Both the position numbers and the translations under genes were made by a program. The notes under the pieces were generated by a model that was not told the DNA's origin, made no database searches, and saw only the letters and a list, made by a program, of their open reading frames with translations. This document shows positions 3,001 through 56,676 of a stretch of 64,000 bases of DNA, piece by piece (position 1 is the first letter of the stretch; each line of letters starts with the position of its first letter). Source of the stretch: Promethearchaeota archaeon (GTDB lineage Archaea > Asgardarchaeota > Lokiarchaeia > Sigyniarchaeales > SOKP01); contig RDOE01000004.1 in NCBI GenBank assembly GCA_011364975.1, positions 3,316 to 67,315 of the forward strand, read 5' to 3'.

Positions 3001-5794
3001 AATTTTCTGCTATAATCTTAAGAGAAGTGGTTAATACTTGCGTTTCATGAAGATATTTAGAAAACACAAAATAAATAGGATAAGTACCATTTGGGGCTCC
3101 TTCTGTGTATAGAGGAATCGAATAATTGCCTTGCCCTAAATAGGAGATATAACCAACTTGATAGGAACCAGTCCACACTCTTCCCCATAATCTAAGAGTT
3201 CCTGTAGAATTTTCATACACCTGTATCGTTGCACCAGATATCCCCCATCCTAAGTAAGTGGAATAATTGATCCCGAAATAGGCGGTCTCTCCAGAGGATA
3301 CTTGGCTAATCAATGAAGAAAATTCAGCATGAGTCTTATTAAGGATAAAAAACTCCATAATATAAGAACCAAATCGTAAAGCTTTACCAGTTTCAAGGTA
3401 ATTTGAGGTGTCATTCCAAAGAAATCGCAAATAATACTTCCCAATAGCATATTTTTCATCTAAATTTAGATTACCCTCTATTTTATCGTTATTTGAAGGA
3501 AAATGTTGAGGAAATTCGTTTAATAAGTTGCCAATTCCGTTGTATAGTTCAATCGTATAATTACCCATAGTAGATTCAAGCAAACTAAGATTATATAATA
3601 TTGAATTATAAGAATAAAAAGCTGGTAAACTCGAATATAGCACTGTGTTGTTAAACTTACCTGAAATAATGTAATTAGGTTGATATCCACGTAATGTCCA
3701 ATTTCCAAGCCTAAATGCACTAAAAATCGTAGCACTTTGAAGATTAAGGCTTGGTGTATGATTAAAAAGGAATAGATTCTCAGTAAAATCTGTTAAAGTG
3801 GGAGTTAATGCTTCGAAAATCTCCCAGTTTATACTATTTGATGCGTTTAAATCAAAAGCAGGCATATCAAGATATGAAATTGCATATCCAGATAAATTAA
3901 AGTATGGAGTATAATTCGCATAAAGCAATTGATTATAGGAAAAGCTATTGTCATATTTAATGTTCCATATACCTCTATCAGCGTTAGATCCAGGTATTGA
4001 ATAACTAGCAAAAGCTCCTAATGGTGTTTCAAAAGTGATTGCTAAACTTGATTTAAAGTTTAGGTATAATTTATCTTCTAAACTTAAATTATAAGTTAAA
4101 AATTGGAAACTATGTTCCGATCCTCCAATCCAATCGGAAATATTGATATAATGTACTCCCTCTGTGACATTATCCCATATAGGGGCGTTATCAGTATTGA
4201 TATATAAACGTGAATTAGAAATGGTTTGTTTGTAATTTATTGTAAAATAAACATCATCTAGATACGAGATGTAATCTATTTCATTATAATAATTGTTTTC
4301 AAATGCTACTCCGATTTTGAAGGCCAAATTATTTACCTTTAGGAGTTCTTCATATTCCTGGGAAAGACTAAAGCTCATATGGTGCCACGGTGTACCAGAA
4401 TAATCATCATAACTAACCTCTGCCATCGAAAAAGGAAGAACCCTTACATTTTGATAATTACTAGTTTCCAAGTCTCCAAGATAAAGGACTATAGAAGCAT
4501 CATTATCAAATTTAAAGGGATTTACTCCAGTACCATCAACATCAATTAATTTATAGCTGTAATCTAAACGAGCAACTTCATATTTCGTTGTGGTATTATA
4601 AAGGATTTCTATTGATTCAAAATTAACAGAAATTAAATCTTCATCTCCTCCATGGCTTGGAGCTCTAGCCCAAGCTCCAAAGTCAAATTTATTTATTCCA
4701 ACTAATCCATTGATTAAATTAGTTATGTTATAGGTACGCGATATAGTGCCATGATTGACATGGCCTATAATTTCTGGATTATTATATACCATTAGAGCAG
4801 TATCAGAACCATTATAAGGTATTTCTCCTTCCTTTGAAATCCAATTATTTCCATTGATGTACTTATTATTAATCCGAGCAATAATTTCATATTTATCTTC
4901 GGTTTCAAAGGTAGACTGTTCATCAAGACTCCATGTAATAGTCATTTGAGCATAATCTGCCTCATATGGTACTAAAATGTAATACCACCAAGCCGCTGAA
5001 GGGTTTCCTCCAAAAGAGTAACTACTTGGATCAATAATAAGCTTCAAACTTGAGAGTGATTCCTCGTAATATAAGTCTATGAAATCATAAAGAGGTTTGT
5101 AAATTCCACCATAAGGGCTTTCTGAATCCTTATAAAATCCTGGATTTGTGTTAAAAGAGTTAAAGTTTAATATAGTTTGATCTTCTTTCTGTATGATCCT
5201 CCCTCTTTGAATGGGTAAACTCTGAGGATTTATATCCAGTAAATTCTGTGTCCAAAAGGCAAAATCACCGGGGTAGAAAGCAGGGGTGCTTCTATCCTTG
5301 CTGTTATAGATTCTTGTTCTCCCATAATTATAATCCTTTAAATCGTATTGTATAAAATACCCATCACCACTCTGTCTTTTTTCTGTCCCCCAAAAATCGT
5401 ATTCATATTCAAAGGGAGAATCTTGAACTATTTGTTGTTTTGAATATGGTTCAATTTCAAATTGCATCGAAGATGCATTCCATAAGTTGGGTGTAGTGAT
5501 GTTAAAGTAATTATTTGGGACTGCGAGATGATCGTTTTCAGTAATTGTACTAGTAGCATTTTCAAGGGTTTTAAAATGAGTAGTATTAATTTTATTATAT
5601 CCTCCTATATCCCCAGAAATGTCAGATGAATGATAGAAACCTGGTTCATATGCAGGATCAAAATTCTGAGTATAATTATTATTATTTAAATCAACAATAC
5701 ATTCATTAAATTTAGACCCTTCAGAAATAACAAGAAATAAACAAAAAATAAATCCCATAATTGCGAATTGTGTAACTTTTTTATTTTTCTGCAA
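29..5794 (-). CDS. Giant (1921 aa) single-pass surface protein. It has an N-terminal signal/anchor, a very long sequon-rich beta-rich ectodomain with Ig-like repeats, one TM helix, and a roughly 320-aa cytoplasmic tail with a longin/roadblock-like alpha/beta module.
   Basis: Uninterrupted 5.8-kb ORF. Hydrophobic N-terminus FAIMGFIFCLFLVISEG. Dozens of N-x-S/T sequons (NITT, NASS, NATST and others). Hydrophobic span LVPYIIIAVGILVAFIFIIH is followed by basic PKRRRK. Tail motif is YIIILTSDGGVPCFSKS...DETLISGFLSAISSFGQEIG...FKIILNEGKYTRVALLLL. TTG start is preceded by a GGGGTGG SD-like box 6 nt upstream. Confidence 0.75.
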   Translation of the reverse strand: MQKNKKVTQFAIMGFIFCLFLVISEGSKFNECIVDLNNNNYTQNFDPAYEPGFYHSSDISGDIGGYNKINTTHFKTLENATSTITENDHLAVPNNYFNITTPNLWNASSMQFEIEPYSKQQIVQDSPFEYEYDFWGTEKRQSGDGYFIQYDLKDYNYGRTRIYNSKDRSTPAFYPGDFAFWTQNLLDINPQSLPIQRGRIIQKEDQTILNFNSFNTNPGFYKDSESPYGGIYKPLYDFIDLYYEESLSSLKLIIDPSSYSFGGNPSAAWWYYILVPYEADYAQMTITWSLDEQSTFETEDKYEIIARINNKYINGNNWISKEGEIPYNGSDTALMVYNNPEIIGHVNHGTISRTYNITNLINGLVGINKFDFGAWARAPSHGGDEDLISVNFESIEILYNTTTKYEVARLDYSYKLIDVDGTGVNPFKFDNDASIVLYLGDLETSNYQNVRVLPFSMAEVSYDDYSGTPWHHMSFSLSQEYEELLKVNNLAFKIGVAFENNYYNEIDYISYLDDVYFTINYKQTISNSRLYINTDNAPIWDNVTEGVHYINISDWIGGSEHSFQFLTYNLSLEDKLYLNFKSSLAITFETPLGAFASYSIPGSNADRGIWNIKYDNSFSYNQLLYANYTPYFNLSGYAISYLDMPAFDLNASNSINWEIFEALTPTLTDFTENLFLFNHTPSLNLQSATIFSAFRLGNWTLRGYQPNYIISGKFNNTVLYSSLPAFYSYNSILYNLSLLESTMGNYTIELYNGIGNLLNEFPQHFPSNNDKIEGNLNLDEKYAIGKYYLRFLWNDTSNYLETGKALRFGSYIMEFFILNKTHAEFSSLISQVSSGETAYFGINYSTYLGWGISGATIQVYENSTGTLRLWGRVWTGSYQVGYISYLGQGNYSIPLYTEGAPNGTYPIYFVFSKYLHETQVLTTSLKIIAENFFEFNIVSGASEIDSKWVLSSNNIPYVNDTINSMIRVNLTDGGIPVTGGLVLGTIGMTENYFKAVEIGNGLYDLTLNTTGLNATKKVDSQFVENETLKIRCSASGYDIKHVNITIFIDKIPTQISLQNIQPIYAEGNILATATIVNKIDPLNPKPNNNANLTYYIYQGTTFKLNGSLGFLMSGVYQKQIYLSGLLPGGYAIYINGSSINCADSQSNIINFTILPQDATLLDISIPTTLRILKEFQIRTTLTYAINSTPIQGQIIYLNISVGLTENFIITTITNIEGISTYQYIIPQQYKGQNITIHAYYQGQSSIAASSAKITKIIQGKIPIMLNIIQYPNVLRVGYSARYALQINITEGSESLQNRIIFFSAYYDDQLDIPFVTNQLYTDENGLCYNEIPEIANGKMNLTIYFEYLGSTTVAYNITSKFDLIQPKWTSNFSMQPLPSVMRFGQTIRFEIHLYCENSSIILQNLPIFFTFRYGTTIEIYTGLIGENNTLVYLYGIPNSFTGDLNLTIVFDGTNKIEGYSLNFSFPISPKIQVQLEFREPPQTQYMYGTYSFEVWVTDELGNPLDGLFILFQILDNDDNLIYNFTAICENGIAIGSLDLSVGNNYKIKVDYIGEEYYESAQLTSANFRVINEFIIFLDLVPYIIIAVGILVAFIFIIHRGVVVPKRRRKVEALKNLYQKLSDVENIPYIIILTSDGGVPCFSKSLADVPIDETLISGFLSAISSFGQEIGSKITEGVGGLEELSYRQFKIILNEGKYTRVALLLLRRPSNSLKEKLKFFNHFFEEVYKERLISFSGEVFDDASVTKMIEDIFEADLLYPHQIVETKVQDYLKSSMPNNVDKKIIVIARSEDFESNFYLRELINHLKTKGIEEIKSFESIQKLKSDKVVFAINPRTNYLIAEFQKYIKHMDSDDKNILFAIFDGSTDIMKINKYLNKRNLKLSKDIDKTIEKLKSLHLINELNQTTEIGSAVATLLKLIPDL

Positions 5795-47316: not shown

Positions 47317-48624
47317 ATGGGAAAAGATCCTAAAACAACCGCTGAAAATCAATTAAAAAAAGCAGAGCAACTATATAAAGCACGGCAATTTAAAAAAGCG
47401 GGCAAGAATTTTCATTCAGCGGGTATTTCTTTTCTTAAACTAGAAGAATATGAAATAGCTAAAAATTGTTTTCTTGAGGCGATAAAACCATTTTTAGAAT
47501 TAGACAAATACGATACGATTTTAGAACTAATACGAAAGGCAAGCGAAGCTTGTTTGCAAAATAATCAATATTCAGAAGCGTTCCGACTTTATAAAGATAC
47601 AATGAACCACATCCCTAAATTAAAGAGTGAAACAGATAAAAATGATAATTATGTTCTCTTTTCTGTTTTATCCTATCTATGTTTACATGCCAATGGTGCT
47701 CCTGAGGAAGGATTAGATTATATTAAAAGAAATAGAAATAAGATAGACAATGACTTCTTCAAAGAAAATAATTTGATTCAATTAATTTCAGAGTTAACAC
47801 TTTCCATCAGAGATAAAACGGAGAAATATCTTGAAAACATTCAAAATAATCTTAATCAATTTAAATTAAGAGATCCGGAAGTAAAATTGTTAAAAGACGT
47901 TATACTGTTGACGAAATTTCAGCTTTTAATTGAAAGTTCTTTAATCTTAGATAAGGACACTTATACTACCAATGACATTATTAATTTAAATGTGGAGTTA
48001 GACACCAATCCTCTCATTCAAGTGCTTAATAACTCATTTTTTAAATTTAAAATCAATAGTTTTCAAATTATTAAACTAATTGTAAGTCTTTCGGATAATT
48101 TAACCACCAATAAAAAGCCAGACTTACCGTTTTCATTAGATATTGGTAGTAAAATTACTTTACCTTTTACATTAAAACCTCACTTTCAATTGGATAACCC
48201 AAAGATAGGCCCTATAAACTTAACGTTTGAATTGAATAATCTACTAATTTTTAATTATGATACCTCCGTTATAATCCCAAATTTAATTTCACCCCCTGCC
48301 TCCTTAGAGGCTTCAATAAAGAATTTACGCCCACCACTTTTAGATCAATCATTTCCATTAGAAATTTTAATTGAAAATCGAAGCCAAGGAGAAGCGCTAG
48401 ATGTAAATATTGATGTTGAATTTCCTGAAGAGCTTAAACTTATGAGAGGCACCACAAATAAGCAAATATATTCATTAAGAAGTAATGAAAATTTAAAATG
48501 GGAGGTCAACCTAAAACCCCTTGATGTAGGAGATTTCATCATTAAAATAAGTATAAAATTTAAAGATCCTGATGATAATCAAATCAACGATGTAAAAGAA
48601 TTCCCCTTTTCAATAAAAATGTAA
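47317..48624 (+). CDS. Two-domain protein: an N-terminal SNAP/TPR-like alpha-solenoid and a C-terminal Ig-like beta-sandwich (CARDB/ASH-like).
   Basis: 435 aa. N-terminal helical-hairpin pattern QLKKAEQLYKARQFKKAGKNFHSAGISFLKLEEYEIAKNCFLEAIKPFLEL. C-terminal strand pattern PLEILIENRSQGEALDVNIDVEFPEELKL...WEVNLKPLDVGDFIIKISIKFKD. Confidence 0.5.
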   Translation: MGKDPKTTAENQLKKAEQLYKARQFKKAGKNFHSAGISFLKLEEYEIAKNCFLEAIKPFLELDKYDTILELIRKASEACLQNNQYSEAFRLYKDTMNHIPKLKSETDKNDNYVLFSVLSYLCLHANGAPEEGLDYIKRNRNKIDNDFFKENNLIQLISELTLSIRDKTEKYLENIQNNLNQFKLRDPEVKLLKDVILLTKFQLLIESSLILDKDTYTTNDIINLNVELDTNPLIQVLNNSFFKFKINSFQIIKLIVSLSDNLTTNKKPDLPFSLDIGSKITLPFTLKPHFQLDNPKIGPINLTFELNNLLIFNYDTSVIIPNLISPPASLEASIKNLRPPLLDQSFPLEILIENRSQGEALDVNIDVEFPEELKLMRGTTNKQIYSLRSNENLKWEVNLKPLDVGDFIIKISIKFKDPDDNQINDVKEFPFSIKM

Positions 48625-49780: not shown

Positions 49781-49920
49781 AATTCAAACCACACAATCTT
49801 ATGTTATTATCTTTATTAATATAAATAAAAAAAGATAACTCAAAAATACATAACAAAAATTAAAATTTTAATATTTAAGTAAAGATACATATATTAAAGA
49901 CAAAAAAATAAAAAATTAAA

Positions 49921-51003
49921 ATGCAAACTTTTAAAATAATCCCTCAGTTTCGGGATAATTGCGTAATCCAAGGAAAGAAGGATTGGTTTCAGGATCTTAG
50001 TTTAGGAGATACGATATTTTTAATCGCAAATGAGCCTACTAAAAAATTCTCTATAATTACTAAAATAGATGGCATAGAGCCTGGAGAAGAACCAATTATA
50101 TATGTAGATCAACGCAATTTGGAAAAATTTGCAGAAGGAGATAAGGTATATCTTTTAAAATATAACCCTGCAGAAGCAATTGAAGTTCGAATTCATATCT
50201 CCGATGAATATAGTCTTATTTCAAAAGGAGATTGGACCAAAAATATTAAACCTTCATTAACTAATAGATTGATTGATATAGGTCAAGAGATTTCCTTTTT
50301 AATTCCATGGGATGCGGGAGATCCAATTATCGGAGCAGGGCTAATAACCTCTACTTTGCCGAATCCTCCATTATTCATCGGTGATCGAACAAAAATTATT
50401 TTAGATAAATTTTCTAATGAGATTCTTTCTAAACTTAAACGTCTTACGATACAAAGTAAAGAAGATCGAGTAGAGATACTGGAAAAACAAATAGAGCAAA
50501 ATATCATAGAGTTTATTAAGAAAATAAAACATCAAAATTACCCCTTCAAAGGTCAAAAATATCAATTTAAAGCAACAAATCCAAAACAATTATTTGAGTC
50601 TATTCTCACATTATTTAAAGGTTTGGATATAATAGAAGAACCAGTTGAAAAAAATTTTGATGAGAAAGATCAAGATTATTTTGCATCAGTGGTCTTCTTA
50701 AATAGAGAAATTGTCCCATATTTACAACTGATTGATCTTCAAATTATTGGTCTTAAAAATACTGGCATGCTAATAATATGGGTTACTGGAGAAAAGGAAG
50801 AGATTGTTGAAGAGACATTAAACAATTATAATACAAAAATATCAGCATTAAAACAAGGTTTAGAACAACATATAAACCTAGTAAGCATACAATGCCCAGA
50901 ATGTGGCGGAGCTTTACCAATAAAAGATATTCAGATAAATGGTATTGTTGAATGTGCATACTGTGCTAGAATTTCTAAAATACCTAAAGCATTACGATAT
51001 TAA
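49921..51003 (+). CDS. Cdc48/VAT N-domain-like protein (double-psi barrel plus beta-clam) with a coiled-coil middle and a C-terminal Zn ribbon. No ATPase domain. First gene of the Ub-like operon.
   Basis: 360 aa. LSLGDTIFLIAN...IIYVDQRNLEKFAEGDKVYLLKYNPAEAIEVRI aligns by eye with VAT-N IGDVVEIE...IVRIDSVMRNNCGASIGDKVKVRKV..AKKVTL. IDIGQEISFLIP...GLITSTLPNPPLFIGDRTKIIL matches the second subdomain. C-terminus is CPECGG-x17-CAYC. Confidence 0.55.
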   Translation: MQTFKIIPQFRDNCVIQGKKDWFQDLSLGDTIFLIANEPTKKFSIITKIDGIEPGEEPIIYVDQRNLEKFAEGDKVYLLKYNPAEAIEVRIHISDEYSLISKGDWTKNIKPSLTNRLIDIGQEISFLIPWDAGDPIIGAGLITSTLPNPPLFIGDRTKIILDKFSNEILSKLKRLTIQSKEDRVEILEKQIEQNIIEFIKKIKHQNYPFKGQKYQFKATNPKQLFESILTLFKGLDIIEEPVEKNFDEKDQDYFASVVFLNREIVPYLQLIDLQIIGLKNTGMLIIWVTGEKEEIVEETLNNYNTKISALKQGLEQHINLVSIQCPECGGALPIKDIQINGIVECAYCARISKIPKALRY

Positions 51004-51008
51004 TTAAA

Positions 51009-51842
51009 GTGGAATTAATCATGGATGAAAACCGATATACTAGACTCAAAGCGCTAAAAGATTTTGGATATGAAATTAACTGGGATGATTTAAAAAGAAA
51101 AAGCGTTGCTATTATTGGTATAGGAGGTTTAGGAACTGTAAGTTCAGAAATGGTGACACGGTGTGGAGTGGGAAAATTAGCTTTATTTGACTTTGATACA
51201 GTTGAACCAGTTAATCTTAATAGAAGTATGTTTAAACCGAAGCATATTGGAAAACCAAAGGCAGAGATAGCCGCAAAAATATTAAATGAAATCAATCCTG
51301 ATGTTAAAATCTATTACTTTATTAAGGACATTATGGATATTGATTTTGAATTTACATTTGAAAAAGAACTTTCAAAGATGGACATAATTCTTAACGGACT
51401 TGATAATATTTCTGCTAGAGAATACCTTAATAGTAAATGTGTAAAGTTGAGAATTCCATATATTGATGCTGGAGCTTCTCGCAGCGGATTATCGGGTTAT
51501 ATTCACCCCATTATTCCTTTCAAAACAGCATGTGCTAAATGTATTAAAAGTATAGCAATAAATCTTCCCGAAGAGAGAGGAGAGCCTTGTGTAGCATCTC
51601 TACCAACAACTATGGCGATACTAGCAAGTATTCAAGTGCAAGAAATGTTAAAACTTCTTCTAAAATTTGGTGAAATGATTGATTATGTTATGTATCATAT
51701 GATTACTGGACAATTCCTTCATTACAATACAAAGAAAGATAATAATTGTCCTATCTGTGGTATTAGAAAAAAAGACGGTAAAAGAATAAAGTCAAAGGTT
51801 ACAGATAAAGATATAGAGGATATAATTGAAAAAATAGAATAA
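51009..51842 (+). CDS. E1-like ubiquitin-activating enzyme (ThiF/MoeB/Uba family).
   Basis: 277 aa. Motifs IIGIGGLGTVSSEMVTRCGVGKLALFDFDTVEPVNLNRSMF, CAKC...CPIC zinc pairs, and PCVASLPTT (Cys loop). An alternative ATG start at 51021 has better spacing to an AGTGGA box. Confidence 0.85.
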   Translation: MELIMDENRYTRLKALKDFGYEINWDDLKRKSVAIIGIGGLGTVSSEMVTRCGVGKLALFDFDTVEPVNLNRSMFKPKHIGKPKAEIAAKILNEINPDVKIYYFIKDIMDIDFEFTFEKELSKMDIILNGLDNISAREYLNSKCVKLRIPYIDAGASRSGLSGYIHPIIPFKTACAKCIKSIAINLPEERGEPCVASLPTTMAILASIQVQEMLKLLLKFGEMIDYVMYHMITGQFLHYNTKKDNNCPICGIRKKDGKRIKSKVTDKDIEDIIEKIE

Positions 51843-51974
51843 ATTAGGTGGTTTATCATCAAAAGGATCCAAATACCCCAAATTTTCATTGAGGTCATTA
51901 AGAATCAAGCTATCCTTAGTTACGAAGAGATATATGGATGGCTAATTGGATATTCTGAGTCAAATGTAACTAAA

Positions 51975-53051
51975 GTGTTAGCAATTTATGAATGTACACA
52001 ATTTATAGAACAAACGGTTATCCATGCAATGCCAGATATATTAGAATTTCAAGAAATTAGTTCAGTTCTTCCTCAAGGTATTGGACCAATAGGTATTTAT
52101 CATTCTCATCCAAGCCTAAGTGATATTTTTCATTCTCATACTGATGATTCAACTCTGATAAGCTTAACAAATCAATTTCAAGATTGCATCTCAATAATTA
52201 CTAATGGACAGAACATTAAATTCTACCAAATGGGGAAAAATTATAAAACTAAAGAAATAGAAGTTGAGTATATTGAACCGGAAGTACCAAAATTTATGTT
52301 AGTTTCAATTAATGAAAAATTTGAAATTTTCATTGATCCCGAATTTTTAACTCAAGAAAAAAGTTTAAGTAAATTAAATATACAAATTCAAAATTTAATC
52401 ATAAATTATTTTCAAAATAACTGGAACGAATTAGAATTTACACATAATAACTCAATAATAGGAAATAAAGATAAATTGCATAAATATTTAGTAGAGAAGT
52501 TAAATACGGAACCATTACGGCTTAAAATTCCATCTAATTTAAAGCAGCGTCATAGAAATTTATTAAAAGTTATCCAGAAAGGCAATAAGGATGATACTGT
52601 AAGTTACGAAGCTTTTGAATTTATTATTAATACAAAATTTCCACTCTATAATATTCGAAAGTATGATAATTTTGATACACTTAGTCAGAAAGTAAAGGAT
52701 GAATTTTTAGGAAATAATCTCATTCAAAAATTGCATAATTTAATCATTGATAAAGAAAACCTTAGAATTATTATACCTAATGACTATTATTTGAAGTTTT
52801 TTGGATTCTATATAAGAACTTTGAACTTCAATAAAAAAAACTTAAATGAAATCTTAATTAAGAATGAACCGTATAAGTTTGAATTGAAAATAATTCGCTT
52901 TTTGAAATCCTTCATAAATTTGGAAGTTTCAATTAAGTTTAAGAACTATTTATATGAGCTTTTGAATAATTTGGAAGATTTTGCTGAACATTTTACATGG
53001 AAAGAGAAATTAAGTGAAGATTTAAAACAACTCAAAATTAACTTAAAGTAG
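51975..53051 (+). CDS. JAMM/MPN+ metalloprotease (Rpn11-like deubiquitinase candidate) with a roughly 240-aa helical C-terminal extension. The true start is probably upstream, near 51855.
   Basis: JAMM motif GIYHSHPSLSDIFHSHTDDS. The matching catalytic Glu motif (EEIYGWLIGY) is encoded at 51924..51953, upstream of GTG 51975, in the same open frame. Confidence 0.75.
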   Translation: MLAIYECTQFIEQTVIHAMPDILEFQEISSVLPQGIGPIGIYHSHPSLSDIFHSHTDDSTLISLTNQFQDCISIITNGQNIKFYQMGKNYKTKEIEVEYIEPEVPKFMLVSINEKFEIFIDPEFLTQEKSLSKLNIQIQNLIINYFQNNWNELEFTHNNSIIGNKDKLHKYLVEKLNTEPLRLKIPSNLKQRHRNLLKVIQKGNKDDTVSYEAFEFIINTKFPLYNIRKYDNFDTLSQKVKDEFLGNNLIQKLHNLIIDKENLRIIIPNDYYLKFFGFYIRTLNFNKKNLNEILIKNEPYKFELKIIRFLKSFINLEVSIKFKNYLYELLNNLEDFAEHFTWKEKLSEDLKQLKINLK

Positions 53052-53147: not shown

Positions 53148-53414
53148 ATGGCATCTGAATTAAATACCATCTATTTTGTTAATAAATTTGGAACAGAAAA
53201 AAAGCAAGTGCCATTCCCTGTTTCAGCAAACATTAAATTAATGGATGTTGTTCCAGAAATCTCAAAAAAGTTTGGAATCTCTTCTCAAAATGTTTGTATT
53301 GCAAATATGGGAGGACAAGTACTAACTAATACAGACCTATTAAGTCCAATTAAAGAAATTGTTGAAAAGTTCGGAAATACTTTTGATATTATTGATAGAG
53401 GGATTGTTGGGTGA
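53148..53414 (+). CDS. Ubiquitin-like beta-grasp modifier.
   Basis: 88 aa, small and operon-embedded between JAMM and E2. C-terminus is ...DIIDRGIVG directly before the stop. The TGA stop overlaps the GTG start of the E2-like gene (GTGA). Confidence 0.7.
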   Translation: MASELNTIYFVNKFGTEKKQVPFPVSANIKLMDVVPEISKKFGISSQNVCIANMGGQVLTNTDLLSPIKEIVEKFGNTFDIIDRGIVG

Positions 53415-53953
53415 CCAGTTCAGATAAAAGATGGCAAAGGTCTATAGTAGATGAATTAATTCAAGAATTTTCTAACAATTGGGTTTCCATAGGACCTAAA
53501 AATCCTGCATGGAAAGATCGGGTAAAGTTAGAGATCGAAAAAATTATGCAGTATATTAATTTCTTAAAGAATACTAAAAATAGACCTTGGTTTAAGTTAT
53601 TTCCAGAACGAAATCCTCGTTATAATTATTTAATTTGGGCAGGAAATTTGGTTGTGCCTGAACGATCTGAAATAAATTTCGATATCAAAGTATTACTTAC
53701 TTCTGAATATCCAAAAGTATGTCCAAGATGTTTCGCAGAAGAATCTATTTTAAATTACTGTGGTAAAATATTTTTGAAGAATATATGGGAACAGGATAGT
53801 AAAAAGTACGTAATGATATGTCATGAACATATGTCTGATACTAATGCATGGAATGAGCGTCTTGGTATTGTTCATTTCTTTATACGCCAGGTATGGGTAT
53901 GGTGGGCTGCTCAACAAAATGTAATTATCCAAGAATATGATAAAAAACATTAA
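53411..53953 (+). CDS. E2-like ubiquitin-conjugating enzyme (UBC fold).
   Basis: 180 aa. FDIKVLLTSEYPKVCPRCFAEE resembles the UBC YP-x-x-PP-x-x-F segment. NYCGKIFLKNIW resembles the catalytic G-x-ICL-x-x-L-x-x-x-W segment. Confidence 0.65.
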   Translation: MTSSDKRWQRSIVDELIQEFSNNWVSIGPKNPAWKDRVKLEIEKIMQYINFLKNTKNRPWFKLFPERNPRYNYLIWAGNLVVPERSEINFDIKVLLTSEYPKVCPRCFAEESILNYCGKIFLKNIWEQDSKKYVMICHEHMSDTNAWNERLGIVHFFIRQVWVWWAAQQNVIIQEYDKKH

Positions 53954-54161: not shown

Positions 54162-55544
54162 ATGTCTAGAGAATCCAACCAACCCTCCAATACTAAGGAT
54201 ATGCCAATTAGCTTACAAGGGATTGAAAAAATCTTGATTTTTTTAAATAATAATGATAAAATCCTTTTTAGTATTAGAGAAATTGGTTACAAGACTAAGT
54301 TATCGACCCGAACGGTCAAAAATATTCTACTGCAATTAGAAAAATTTAATCAGGTTGAACGTGTCATTGAAGGGAATAATGTTATCCCAAAATGGCAAAT
54401 CACTAAATTCGGAAAAAGAGTATTAAAAGAAGCTAAGGGTGTTGGGAATAATATCACATTTTCTACAAGAGAAGAAGAATTGTTAAAAGGAATAGTGATA
54501 CCTCAAGAAAAATTTCTTGATAATGATTTAAAAAAGACTTTAGATAGAGCACTATCTGAATTAAATACTATGCAAGTTGAAATAAGTAAAATTTTGGGGT
54601 CAATTCTTAATATAAATAATCCAATTTTAGAAGAAACTACTGGATTCATTTTAAAAAGAATCAAATTTCTCAAGCAAAAACTTACTAATTTGTTTGATGA
54701 CCGAACATCTCAAATTTCTAAAGTGGGTGAAAAATCAAAGAAATTTTCCAAAGAAGAGATAAAATTTAATAAAGTGGAAAAATTGCTCTTCAACTCATTA
54801 ATTATTAATCAGATGAAGAGAATTTCAGATATAATTATAGATCTTTCCAATAATGTTGAACATCTAGAAGTTAATAATTCTCTCTCTCTTGCTAATGATT
54901 TAAGAGACGAGATTAGGATCATAAGTGACTTAATTAATCAAAGGGAATCATTAAAAATAGGTTTAAATATTCTTCTAAAAGAAGATTTAAAACAACTTTC
55001 CAATAATAAAATTGCACCTGATATTCTGGATAAAATAATTGAGATTCCCTTGTCTGAGGATATTTTAGGGAGAGAAGTTGGAGAAACGGTACTAACGTTA
55101 TTAAACAGGTTAAATAAAAATGAGACAGTTCTTATAGATCATAATTATGAATTGACAGATTTTATTCCTTTGTTTAAACTCTTTCAGCTTATTTTAGATG
55201 AAAAGCCCAATTTAAACTTTACCATCGATAAATTAGAAGAAACAATCAATGAACTCTCTGAACAAGGATACATCCCTGGAATGAAAACTATTCGGGATGC
55301 AGAAAACAATTATTTGAAAGTAGTTCAACTTAAACCTCATGATGTTTCACAAGATGAGATAGAATTAGTAAAAATTGCATTGAAGCAAGAAAAGTTTACT
55401 CTCGCAGATATTATCAAATTAACAGGTTGGTCTCCAGAACACGCATCAGAACTTTTAAATAAGCTAACAAAGCTTGGAATATTAAACTATTCCAGGTCTT
55501 TTTTACATGGAGAACGATGGTTTGTTATAACCGAGCAAAAATAA
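54162..55544 (+). CDS. Winged-helix protein: N-terminal wHTH, coiled-coil middle, and a C-terminal EAP30 (ESCRT-II Vps22/Vps36)-like tandem WH.
   Basis: 460 aa. N-terminus FSIREIGYKTKLSTRTVKNILLQLEKFNQVERV. The C-terminus KTIRDAENNYLKVVQLKP...FTLADIIKLTGWSPEHASELLNKLTKLGILNYSRSFLHGERWFV parallels the human SNF8 C-terminus (LRVFDSGVMVIELQS...[44 protein letters not shown]). Confidence 0.5.
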   Translation: MSRESNQPSNTKDMPISLQGIEKILIFLNNNDKILFSIREIGYKTKLSTRTVKNILLQLEKFNQVERVIEGNNVIPKWQITKFGKRVLKEAKGVGNNITFSTREEELLKGIVIPQEKFLDNDLKKTLDRALSELNTMQVEISKILGSILNINNPILEETTGFILKRIKFLKQKLTNLFDDRTSQISKVGEKSKKFSKEEIKFNKVEKLLFNSLIINQMKRISDIIIDLSNNVEHLEVNNSLSLANDLRDEIRIISDLINQRESLKIGLNILLKEDLKQLSNNKIAPDILDKIIEIPLSEDILGREVGETVLTLLNRLNKNETVLIDHNYELTDFIPLFKLFQLILDEKPNLNFTIDKLEETINELSEQGYIPGMKTIRDAENNYLKVVQLKPHDVSQDEIELVKIALKQEKFTLADIIKLTGWSPEHASELLNKLTKLGILNYSRSFLHGERWFVITEQK

Positions 55545-55575: not shown

Positions 55576-56676
55576 ATGTATAAGGAAATAAAAGGTAAAA
55601 GTGTTGTTGATTCCGAGCCAGAGATTATTGCTTGGCAACGTCATGGGATTGATACTAAAAATGGGCCGCTAATTTATGTATTTCCTAAACCAGGTGATGA
55701 TATAAAAAGCAAGAAATTTTTTGCTGTAAAAGATTATGAAAGAGCATTATTTTATAATAAGGGAGAACTTCTAGGAGTCCTCGGGGGCGGGGTCTATGAA
55801 CTAGAGAAAAAGGCAAAAATAAAGGGGACGGAGATCGTTTGGATTGACACCTCTTTTGTAGACATCCAGTGGGGAATACCACAATCTAGTGGTATACCCA
55901 CTTTGGATGGTACTATTCTCGGTTTACATGGAGATCTAAAATTGAAAATAAGGGATGTTAAAATATTTTACAATGATGTAGTAGCTGGTAAAAGCCCTTG
56001 GACCGTTCAAAATCTGAAAGAATTTATAATGAGTCTACTGCATACATCCTTTAGAGATATATTTAAAAAATATAAGGCTAAACAAGTTTTACTAGAGGAG
56101 CGAGAGCGAATAATTAATCTACTTACAGCGAAGGTCGCCGAGGATTTTTTAAGATATGGTTTAGAGCTAGAAACCTTGAATATACTTGGTGTTAAAACCT
56201 CTGAAGGTACAGAAACTCTTTTTAGAGTAGAAAAAGAAAAAAGTAATGTTTCAGATGAGATCGAAATTTTAAAAATAAAAAAAGATCTTGACGCTCAAAA
56301 AATGGAATTAGAGGCTGCTAAACGAGAATTTCATCGAAAAGAAGAGATTTTAGATTCTCGTATGGAATTGGAAAAATCTAAACTTCAAACTGAGGCAGAA
56401 AAGATTGAGGGAGAAGCTAAATCTGCTGTGTTGGAAAAACACGCTAGAGCGGCTGTAGCAGGAGAGATGAGAATATTGGAGGTTCATGGAGATAAAGCAT
56501 TAGAAATCGCAGATAGTAGTAGAAAGGATCAAATTCGGGCTAAGATTGATGAATTAAAAGAAAAGTTAGATAAATTTGATAATTTATTAGCAGAAGATAA
56601 AATTTCAAAGGATATTTATAAAACAAGAGTAGAGCGAATTGAAAAAGAACTGAAAGCGCTTGAACAACAACTTTAA
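55576..56676 (+). CDS. SPFH/Band-7-like (YdjI-type) domain protein with a long coiled coil and a SHOCT-like C-terminus.
   Basis: 366 aa. N-terminal pattern FAVKDYERALFYNKGELLGVLGGGVYEL...IVWIDTSFVDIQWGIP...LHGDLKLKIRDVKIFY. The C-terminal 150 aa is heptad-rich and ends LLAEDKISKDIYKTRVERIEKEL. Confidence 0.5.
   Translation: MYKEIKGKSVVDSEPEIIAWQRHGIDTKNGPLIYVFPKPGDDIKSKKFFAVKDYERALFYNKGELLGVLGGGVYELEKKAKIKGTEIVWIDTSFVDIQWGIPQSSGIPTLDGTILGLHGDLKLKIRDVKIFYNDVVAGKSPWTVQNLKEFIMSLLHTSFRDIFKKYKAKQVLLEERERIINLLTAKVAEDFLRYGLELETLNILGVKTSEGTETLFRVEKEKSNVSDEIEILKIKKDLDAQKMELEAAKREFHRKEEILDSRMELEKSKLQTEAEKIEGEAKSAVLEKHARAAVAGEMRILEVHGDKALEIADSSRKDQIRAKIDELKEKLDKFDNLLAEDKISKDIYKTRVERIEKELKALEQQL

Follow-up and report, generated by a model that had tools for sequence, protein, structure and literature searches.

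The N-domain of p97 binds UBX, UBX-L and ubiquitin folds, as well as short motifs, in and around the cleft between its two subdomains. UFMylation has long been held to be largely eukaryotic in origin. In Ufd1, the UT3 domain has the same type of N-domain fold and lacks an ATPase; ubiquitin sits on its ridge and the C-terminal strand of ubiquitin lies in its cleft (bioRxiv 10.64898/2026.03.07.710261). Ufm1 homologues have been reported from Asgard archaea (PMC12962969), and UFL1 and DDRGK1 have been traced to an Asgard origin, while UFC1 and UFM1 were reported to be exclusive to eukaryotes (PMC10183829). Here we describe a gene of a Promethearchaeota archaeon (GenBank assembly GCA_011364975.1, contig RDOE01000004.1), located at 49921..51003 (+) in a DNA stretch of 64,000 nucleotides (positions 3,316 to 67,315 of the contig) that we refer to as the window. 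It is an ATG-initiated open reading frame (ORF) of 360 amino acids (aa), and an identical sequence has been deposited as "hypothetical protein" from a Candidatus Lokiarchaeota metagenome-assembled genome (MAG). The product, called the N-domain protein below, is predicted to join a Cdc48-type N-domain to a C-terminal zinc ribbon, and its gene is kept in a set of seven that encodes a UFM1-type conjugation cascade. What is new here is its architecture, its pan-Asgard family and its association with a UFM1-type cascade; precedents exist for both its fold and its general role.

Predicted fold of the N-terminal half

We modelled the N-domain protein with AlphaFold2 on an alignment of 50 orthologous sequences. 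The whole-protein model reached a mean predicted local distance difference test score (pLDDT) of 87.8 and a predicted TM-score of 0.71, with a pLDDT of ~90 across residues 1-90. Secondary structure assigned by DSSP runs from a β-rich region (residues 1-165) through a helix (166-192) to an α/β unit (β-α-β4-α) and a small ribbon. The gene is accordingly divided as follows.

49921..50178 (+): predicted N-terminal subdomain, double-psi β-barrel-like (Cdc48 Nn-like), residues 1-86; AlphaFold2 per-block pLDDT 88-95 and Foldseek
50179..50415 (+): predicted second subdomain, β-clam (Cdc48 Nc-like), residues 87-165, with the linker motif LKYNPAEA; Foldseek, sub-threshold CDC48_2 and hhalign
50416..50532 (+): long connecting helix 166-192 and short helix 196-204 (residues 166-204); DSSP on the AlphaFold2 model
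50533..50862 (+): α/β domain, β-α-β4-α, residues 205-314; AlphaFold2 models
50881..50979 (+): C4 zinc ribbon, CPEC-x16-CAYC, residues 321-353; invariant Cys
50980..51000 (+): extreme C-terminal tail, IPKALRY-COOH, residues 354-360; orthologue conservation

A Foldseek search of the PDB with the model returned 58 matches at E<=1e-3, the N-domain matches falling on residues ~1-175. Among the 50 matches listed, 48 are N-domains of Cdc48-family ATPases or Ufd1, one example being p97 (7r7s_D; E 4.7e-7, probability 1.00). Against isolated N-domains of 164-185 residues the TM-scores were 0.58-0.62, including 0.62 for p97-N (4kdl_A, 173 columns) and 0.61 for VAT-N (1cz4). Further matches were the N-domains of PEX1 (1wlf) and NSF (1qcs), SPATA5, and the UT3 domain of UFD1 (2yuj), which at E 3.1e-4 is weaker than p97-N. 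Since the alignments span 173-190 columns, both subdomains, the double-psi barrel and the β-clam, are matched. The predicted structure thus shows the two-subdomain Cdc48/p97/VAT N-domain fold at residues 1-165, with no ATPase. An earlier note, made by eye from the sequence alone, had placed both VAT/Cdc48/Ufd1 subdomains in this region and suggested structure prediction as a check; the model and the Foldseek matches agree with it.

The two remaining listed matches are chains of the GATOR1 complex, presumably the N-terminal domain of DEPDC5. We rejected DEPDC5 as a full-length relative: the match to 9v0j_C (GATOR1-KICSTOR) spans 355 columns but at a root-mean-square deviation of 21.7, and the C-terminal half modelled alone gave no match to DEPDC5 or SABA, leaving only the N-domain fold in common.

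Sequence comparison supports this assignment weakly. In an hhalign comparison with human p97-N, residues 71-161 aligned with p97 95-184 in the expected register, although at E 0.094 the similarity is below significance (the human p97-N sequence used here and the UFM1 sequence used below were entered by hand). In this alignment GLITSTLPNPPLFIGDRTKI is paired with the p97 stretch, and the strand motif 'V..T.P.P..I...T.I' and the GD loops are in register. The two GD loops, G29-D30 and G73-D74, are conserved in the orthologue alignment. The linker LKYNPAEA is highly conserved as well, and its YNPAEA, the most conserved motif of all, falls on the Nn-Nc linker of p97, which we take to include Tyr110 as part of the adaptor-binding cleft. 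In a broader family of 42 sequences, A86, G103, W105, D119, P147, P150 and T157 are kept in at least 90% of members, and 5 members match Pfam CDC48_2 below threshold (best E 9.6e-4).

No AAA+ ATPase follows the N-domain. The Walker A motif (G-x4-GK[ST]) is absent from all 360 residues and the protein has no Pfam AAA hit, so the D1 and D2 domains of a Cdc48-family ATPase are missing, as had been noted from the lack of Walker motifs. A Pfam UFD1 match is likewise absent, and sequence searches of Pfam, NCBIfam and the PDB recovered nothing beyond weak similarity to a LysW-type zinc ribbon (residues 323-350).

Conserved linkage to a UFM1-type gene set

In the window, the N-domain gene heads a row of genes on the same strand, as first noted, and the next gene, for an E1, starts 5 nt past its stop codon. 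The row continues with genes for a JAMM (JAB) protease, a ubiquitin-like protein (Ubl), an E2, a winged-helix (WH) protein and an SPFH protein. The earlier note had named co-occurrence with ubiquitin-system genes in related genomes as a possible point of refutation, and we examined this in two collections of loci (numbered L001 and up). The first was seeded with the N-domain protein and comprised 21 GTDB loci plus 2 from an exact protein look-up, 20 of them with a complete gene and adequate downstream flank. An E1 gene lies directly downstream in 19 of these 20 loci; in L001, JAB and E1 are adjacent but inverted. The second set was seeded with the E2 in a metagenome scan that gave 66 loci, of which 19 were Loki-type with adequate upstream sequence. 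Here the N-domain gene stands directly upstream of E1 in 18, with L048 as the exception.

The linkage extends to relatives at 20-28% identity, which still lie within the seven-gene set. In the Odinarchaeota locus L024 the gene is followed by E1 and JAB, and in L025 and L028 the order is SPFH, N-domain gene, WH, with E1, JAB, Ubl and E2 4 kb off. The Heimdallarchaeota loci L030 and L087, and also L029/L086, retain the association in rearranged form; in L087 the gene precedes E2. In the loci compared, the N-domain protein is conserved to about the same degree as the E1, and better than the JAMM and WH proteins. The genes that flank the cassette vary between loci, and the cassette occurs once per contig. 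In conclusion, the N-domain gene is kept beside a UBA5-like E1, a JAMM protease, a Ubl ending in VG and a UFC1-like E2, near WH and SPFH genes, across three Asgard lineages. The co-occurrence was found to be very strong, down to ~20-28% identity in the Odin and Heimdall relatives. Separately, insertions of ~1-2.6 kb are present among the N-domain, E1, JAMM and Ubl genes in L006, L007 and L035.

Such close linkage to E1 might mean that the N-domain protein is an E1 cofactor, which would associate with the UBA5-like E1 in a stoichiometric complex and supply in trans the functions that recruit the Ubl and the E2. In eukaryotic UBA5, these recruiting functions reside in the C-terminal UIS and the UFC1-binding tail. 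The gene nearly always directly precedes E1 in the same orientation, the 5-nt gap (gaps are similarly short, or small overlaps, in most other loci) suggests translational coupling, and the 277-aa E1 is essentially an adenylation domain only, aligning to residues ~12-294 of the 6h78 chain; the invariant C-terminal tail of the N-domain protein could be an E1- or E2-docking peptide. However, in L025 and L028 the gene sits between SPFH and WH, away from E1, and in L087 it precedes E2. The E1 also has an acidic-hydrophobic C-terminal tail of its own, and a gene fusion described below points to the WH scaffold as partner rather than to E1. We therefore regard a role as E1 cofactor as unlikely.

Genes of the cassette

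The neighbouring features of the window are listed here in order.

49781..49920 (+): AT-rich 140-nt intergenic region between the N-domain gene and a divergent M24 peptidase gene; read from the sequence
51009..51842 (+): E1, UBA5-like adenylation domain, 277 aa; Pfam ThiF E 9e-53, UBA5 6h78 E 1.3e-49
51843..53051 (+): JAMM/MPN metalloprotease, ~400 aa, with a long C-terminal extension; Pfam Prok-JAB
53148..53414 (+): Ubl, 88 aa, ending ...DRGIVG; Ubl alignment
53411..53953 (+): E2, UFC1-like, invariant Cys137 in MICHEH; Pfam UFC1 26.3 bits (cut-off 25), PDB UFC1 E 3.3e-4
54162..55544 (+): multi-winged-helix protein, 460 aa, C-terminal tandem WH of ESCRT-II Vps22/SNF8 (EAP30) type; SNF8 3cuq_A E 1.2e-7
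55576..56676 (+): SPFH/Band-7 protein with C-terminal coiled coil; Pfam Band_7 E 2e-10, Band_7_1 E 3e-10

The intergenic region contains TATA-like runs such as TTTATTAATATAAATA and is probably the promoter of the operon. The E1 is of UBA5 type, matching UBA5 (6h78) at E 1.3e-49 versus 1.7e-26 for MoeB. In the E2, Cys137 aligns as the probable equivalent of the catalytic Cys of UFC1. The Ubl aligned with human UFM1 by hhalign weakly (E 0.0087) but in register up to the terminal VG (UFM1 ...PRDRVG); a search of the PDB with the Ubl profile gave no hit. Together, the UBA5-like E1, the UFC1-like E2 and the VG-ended Ubl indicate that the operon is UFM1-type and not ubiquitin-type. The earlier description of a ubiquitin-like operon with E1, E2 and Ub thus stands as to the presence of E1, E2 and Ubl neighbours, but needs correcting as to their type (UBA5 E 1e-49, the UFC1 match and a Ubl ending ...RGIVG).

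The Ubl and E2 of the window are separate ORFs in different frames with a 4-nt overlap (53148-53953). In many relatives they form one fused ORF of ~270 aa (...DRGIVG|S...), for example at L001:11389-12204, L002:11401-12213 and L098:10895-11704, which suggests that the JAMM protease is probably needed to expose the C-terminal Gly of the Ubl. Two tandem UFC1-like E2 paralogues were seen in a more distant cassette lineage (L076:4316-5645, L077 and L084:9935-11165).

The JAMM protein has intact JAMM motifs, and its best PDB match is the Caldiarchaeum Rpn11-like 6fjv (E 1.8e-3, HSHP...S.TD aligned). Its frame is open directly after the E1 stop codon, a conserved GGTG shortly preceding it, and the conserved N-terminus with the catalytic-Glu motif EEIYGWLIGY is encoded ahead of the first ATG, GTG or TTG (51843-51975; also in L003, L032 and L036). 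The ORF start listed at 51975 (GTG) shortens the protein. These features suggest a non-canonical start codon or coupled re-initiation.

Pfam EAP30 was found in 9 of 20 members of the WH protein family, and the EAP30-like part comprises the last ~120 residues. We rejected UFL1 as the identity of this protein, as it has no UFL1 or DDRGK match in Pfam or the PDB and matches EAP30/SNF8 instead. The WH protein of the window scores with EAP30 and not UFL1, though the literature reports Asgard 'E3 UFM1 ligase-like' proteins. The SPFH gene is co-located with the set in most loci. No RING protein is found among the seven genes, the JAMM is the sole protease, and neither a UFL1/DDRGK1-type E3 nor a UFSP cysteine protease was detected in the cassette.

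Outside the cassette, the gene at 47317-48624 (+) encodes 435 aa, of which the N-terminus is TPR/SNAP-like (Pfam SNAP E 0.003) and the C-terminus is a β-sandwich resembling TRAPPC13_C/TRAP_beta. It was rejected as a partner because its synteny with the cassette is not kept in other loci.

The C-terminal half: α/β domain, zinc ribbon and tail

Behind the N-domain, R183 of the connecting helix is invariant in the orthologues. Modelled separately, the C-terminal half reached a pLDDT of 74. The α/β domain found no confident relative: its best Foldseek match in the PDB was at E 3.8e-3, to generic helix-grip, PsbP-like and DcrB-like folds, and profile searches of the PDB and Pfam with the C-terminal half recovered only the zinc ribbon. 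The ribbon Cys residues C325, C328, C345 and C348 are invariant in the 50 orthologues. A C-terminal ribbon had been recognized from the start, although its spacing is CPEC-x16-CAYC (equal to CPECGG-x14-CAYC) and not the CPECGG-x17-CAYC first given.

The resemblance of the ribbon to the LysW type is below cut-off (Pfam E 0.005, 16.9 bits vs 27; PDB 5k2m_E, E 0.04-0.06). LysW carries an acidic C-terminal tail of EDWGE type. We rejected a LysW-type amino-group carrier given the sub-cut-off ribbon and the basic/aromatic IPKALRY tail. A RING or U-box E3 was rejected as well: the 4 conserved Cys are in ribbon arrangement, with no eight-ligand cross-brace, and Prok-RING matches only 2 of the 42 family members (E 0.08).

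Another reading has the N-domain protein regulate the operon by binding nucleic acid through its ribbon and the WH partner, or takes its gene to be an unrelated passenger. Weak TFIIB- and LysW-type ribbon matches, and generic TrmB and IclR winged helix-turn-helix matches of the WH neighbour, point this way, but all of them are below family cut-offs. The two-subdomain N-domain is a protein-binding fold, and conservation with linkage down to ~20% identity would be atypical of a passenger. We consider both versions extremely improbable.

At the extreme C-terminus, IPKALRY is essentially invariant (P355, K356, R359 and Y360 without exception in the 50 orthologues), and P-x2-[LYF]-R is retained near the C-terminus in the broad family. 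On this pattern the tail looks like a docking motif. The tail ends in L-R-Y-COOH and not in Hb-Y-X, and on this sequence we rejected an HbYX proteasome-docking tail. This bears on a Ufd1-like delivery factor, which would recognize Ubl-modified proteins, perhaps with the JAMM/MPN protein in the manner of Ufd1-Npl4, and pass them via its tail to Cdc48/VAT, PAN or the proteasome. UFD1 UT3 is among the fold matches and functions without an ATPase of its own, the combined inventory of the N-domain and JAMM proteins (N-domain, zinc module, MPN and C-terminal domain) resembles Ufd1-Npl4, and the extreme C-terminus is invariant. However, p97-N outscores UFD1, the JAMM retains its catalytic motifs, unlike Npl4, and the tail is not HbYX. 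Moreover, no AAA+ or proteasome gene was seen in the Pfam-annotated gene lists that we examined, and there is no two-ring AAA+ candidate in the 64-kb window. Delivery to such machines is, in our view, quite improbable.

The same tail holds K356, exposed and invariant in the Loki orthologues, so that the N-domain protein might itself be the main acceptor of the Ubl, its activity switched by modification; protein and modifier are encoded in cis. In the broader family, however, the residue found here may be K, R, P, L, A or Y. As the lysine is invariant in close orthologues only, we rejected K356 as the acceptor, and a role as dedicated substrate would leave the conserved cleft motifs of the N-domain and the WH fusion unexplained. 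We judge it very unlikely.

A pan-Asgard family built from two mobile modules

We found 125 close homologues, nearly all of ~360 aa and 45-100% identical; orthologues are 45-84% identical. All named close homologues come from Lokiarchaeota/Promethearchaeota or Hermodarchaeota MAGs, and distant full-length members at 20-30% identity are found in Odinarchaeota, Heimdallarchaeota and Kariarchaeaceae, so that the family spans Loki-, Odin- and Heimdallarchaeota. The label "orphan" in the earlier note therefore has to be dropped, as the protein belongs to a conserved pan-Asgard family. Its remark that no protein of this architecture has been characterised was borne out: the family has no Pfam or NCBIfam model, the 360-aa members carry generic source names ("hypothetical protein", once "uncharacterized Zn ribbon protein"), and the full-text literature that we searched describes neither the N-domain protein nor the seven-gene cassette. 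Searching 1.84 billion representative proteins with a profile yielded 105 relatives, and no protein of Cdc48-like length with an N-terminal match.

Both halves of the protein also occur apart. The N-domain alone is carried by a NACHT protein and an LRR/Hint protein. The C-terminal part (α/β domain, zinc ribbon and short P-containing tail), here the C-module, ends many Asgard-type β-propeller, WD40 and multi-transmembrane proteins, where it is typically preceded by a transmembrane segment and an Ig-like β-sandwich and its tail motif is P-x-W-[LM]. The N-domain protein is thus an assembly of two mobile modules, N-domain and C-module. Proteins with the C-module that have a signal peptide or transmembrane segment and a β-propeller or multi-transmembrane region include P0174, P0179, P0183, P0194, P0195 and P0202, among others. 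We rejected the C-module paralogues as operon-linked alternative receptors, as the two loci examined, L099 and L100, are not Ubl operons.

Two kinds of fusion involve the N-domain protein itself. In variants of ~461 aa (P0150 at L026:8001-9386 and L027:2240-3625, P0153, P0161 and P0172), the N-domain and α/β domain are kept and an EAP30-like tandem WH replaces the zinc ribbon. The tandem WH of P0150 and P0153 is homologous to the C-terminus of the WH protein of the operon (E 4e-10). The fused gene (P0150, P0153) follows E1 and JAB, and the available flank contains no separate WH or SPFH gene. This swap of ribbon and tail for an operon-type tandem WH is evidence of the Rosetta-stone type for the WH scaffold as the normal working partner of the C-terminal part. 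In the second kind, a TIR_2 domain is fused N-terminally to the full N-domain/zinc-ribbon protein (P0101 at L098:6990-8657, P0075, P0082 and P0130; 43-56 bits vs a cut-off of 28). The TIR fusion of L098 retains the slot upstream of E1, JAMM and Ubl-E2.

TIR domains raise the question of defence. The cassette might be a conflict or defence Ubl system like bacterial Bil or CBASS Cap2/Cap3, with the N-domain protein as sensor or recruiter of a foreign target. Bacterial Bil systems have the same core of E1, E2, Ubl and JAMM, and the core composition of the cassette matches it. The TIR orthologues in the same operon slot, the fusion of the N-domain to NACHT and LRR/Hint proteins and the differing genes around the cassette would fit as well. 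PADLOC, however, has no model for the N-domain protein and gave no match for it, the JAMM, the Ubl or the SPFH protein; the E1 showed only generic similarity (1e-17, vs 1e-49 to UBA5), and we rejected membership of known anti-phage Ubl systems (CBASS Cap2/Cap3 and others) on this result. Occurrence once per contig, at 45-84% identity and in three Asgard lineages, is a pattern more typical of housekeeping genes. A defence role therefore seems rather unlikely.

Proposed role

Fold, linkage and fusions together suggest that the N-domain protein serves an Asgard UFM1-type conjugation system as an adaptor or receptor subunit without catalysis of its own, much as Ufd1 does in its pathway. The earlier note had suggested a ubiquitin receptor, a substrate adaptor or an E3 surrogate, which this proposal resembles. 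It is the most likely of the readings considered here, and we hold the balance for it to be even. In such a system, the N-domain would act as a protein-recognition module like those of p97 and Ufd1, and its interdomain cleft or linker may bind a β-grasp protein or the C-terminal strand of one; candidates here are a substrate, the UFM1-like modifier and E2~Ubl in its charged form. The C-module (α/β domain, ribbon and tail) would dock the protein onto the WH and SPFH scaffold. Both together could give the cascade its specificity or read-out, an E3-like or receptor role that would need no catalytic cysteine or RING.

Several observations weigh against this proposal. At the level of sequence, homology to CDC48_N stays below significance, and the protein has no match to Pfam CDC48_N or CDC48_2 at E<=1 and hence falls short of the Pfam gathering threshold. 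An adjacent copy of the gene is absent in the distant UFC1-like operons L072, L079/L080 and L088 and in the Loki-type L048, which implies that the protein is not strictly indispensable in cis. The C-module paralogues of L099 and L100 are not encoded near Ubl genes, and the TIR fusions could point to another biological context. Finally, the α/β domain, having no identifiable relative, could hold an unforeseen activity.

On a broader view of the adaptor or receptor role, the N-domain protein would be the specificity and receptor subunit of a complete pre-eukaryotic UFM1-type machine on a membrane-proximal scaffold, formed by the ESCRT-II-like WH protein together with the SPFH protein. Its N-domain would stand to Ufd1-type modifier recognition as an archaeal forerunner or sister, and the C-module would plug the N-domain, β-propellers and the cytoplasmic tails of receptors into the same partner, with F-box-like logic. 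This fuller picture is speculative and, in our judgement, improbable.

The cassette is a compact and conserved set of seven genes: a UBA5-like E1, a UFC1-like E2, a VG-ended Ubl, a processing protease and three non-enzymatic partners, among which the N-domain protein is the best conserved. The seven proteins are small (the largest has 460 aa) and no predicted transmembrane segment was noticed, so reconstitution looks feasible. If the N-domain protein is a receptor or E3-like factor, target selection by a minimal UFM1-type system becomes testable. A second testable question would then be whether Ubl recognition by an ATPase-independent Cdc48 N-domain fold, of which Ufd1 is an example, is older than eukaryotes.

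Comparison with known systems

Compared with the N-domains of Cdc48/p97/VAT, NSF, PEX1 and SPATA5, the N-domain protein is alike in the predicted two-subdomain fold over ~175 residues (E 5e-7, TM-score ~0.6). It differs from Cdc48/p97/VAT in what follows: the D1 and D2 AAA+ rings give way to a helix, a novel α/β domain, the zinc ribbon and the conserved tail. With Ufd1 it shares a UT3-like N-domain fold (E 3.1e-4) that lacks an ATPase of its own and belongs to a Ubl pathway. Ufd1, however, acts with ubiquitin and Cdc48 and has UT6, with its SHP and Npl4-binding motifs, behind UT3, whereas the N-domain protein has an unrelated, structured C-terminal half and stands with a UFM1-like E1 and E2.

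With respect to the eukaryotic UFM1 system, UBA5 and UFC1 have their closest archaeal counterparts in the E1 and E2 of the cassette, whose Ubl, in common with mature UFM1, has VG at its end. The eukaryotic system works with UFL1/DDRGK1/CDK5RAP3 and UFSP, whereas the cassette has a JAMM instead of UFSP and an EAP30-type WH protein instead of UFL1, and in many relatives Ubl and E2 form a single fusion. We know of no eukaryotic UFM1 component with a Cdc48-N fold. The ubiquitin operon of Caldiarchaeum and Asgard archaea is alike in that an archaeal operon encodes a Ubl cascade together with a JAMM, which probably processes the Ubl precursor (PMC6043591). That operon comprises Ub, E1, E2, a small RING E3 and Rpn11, whereas the cassette has UBA5- and UFC1-type enzymes and no RING among its seven genes; the sole zinc protein noted for the cassette in this comparison is the N-domain protein with its 4-Cys ribbon.

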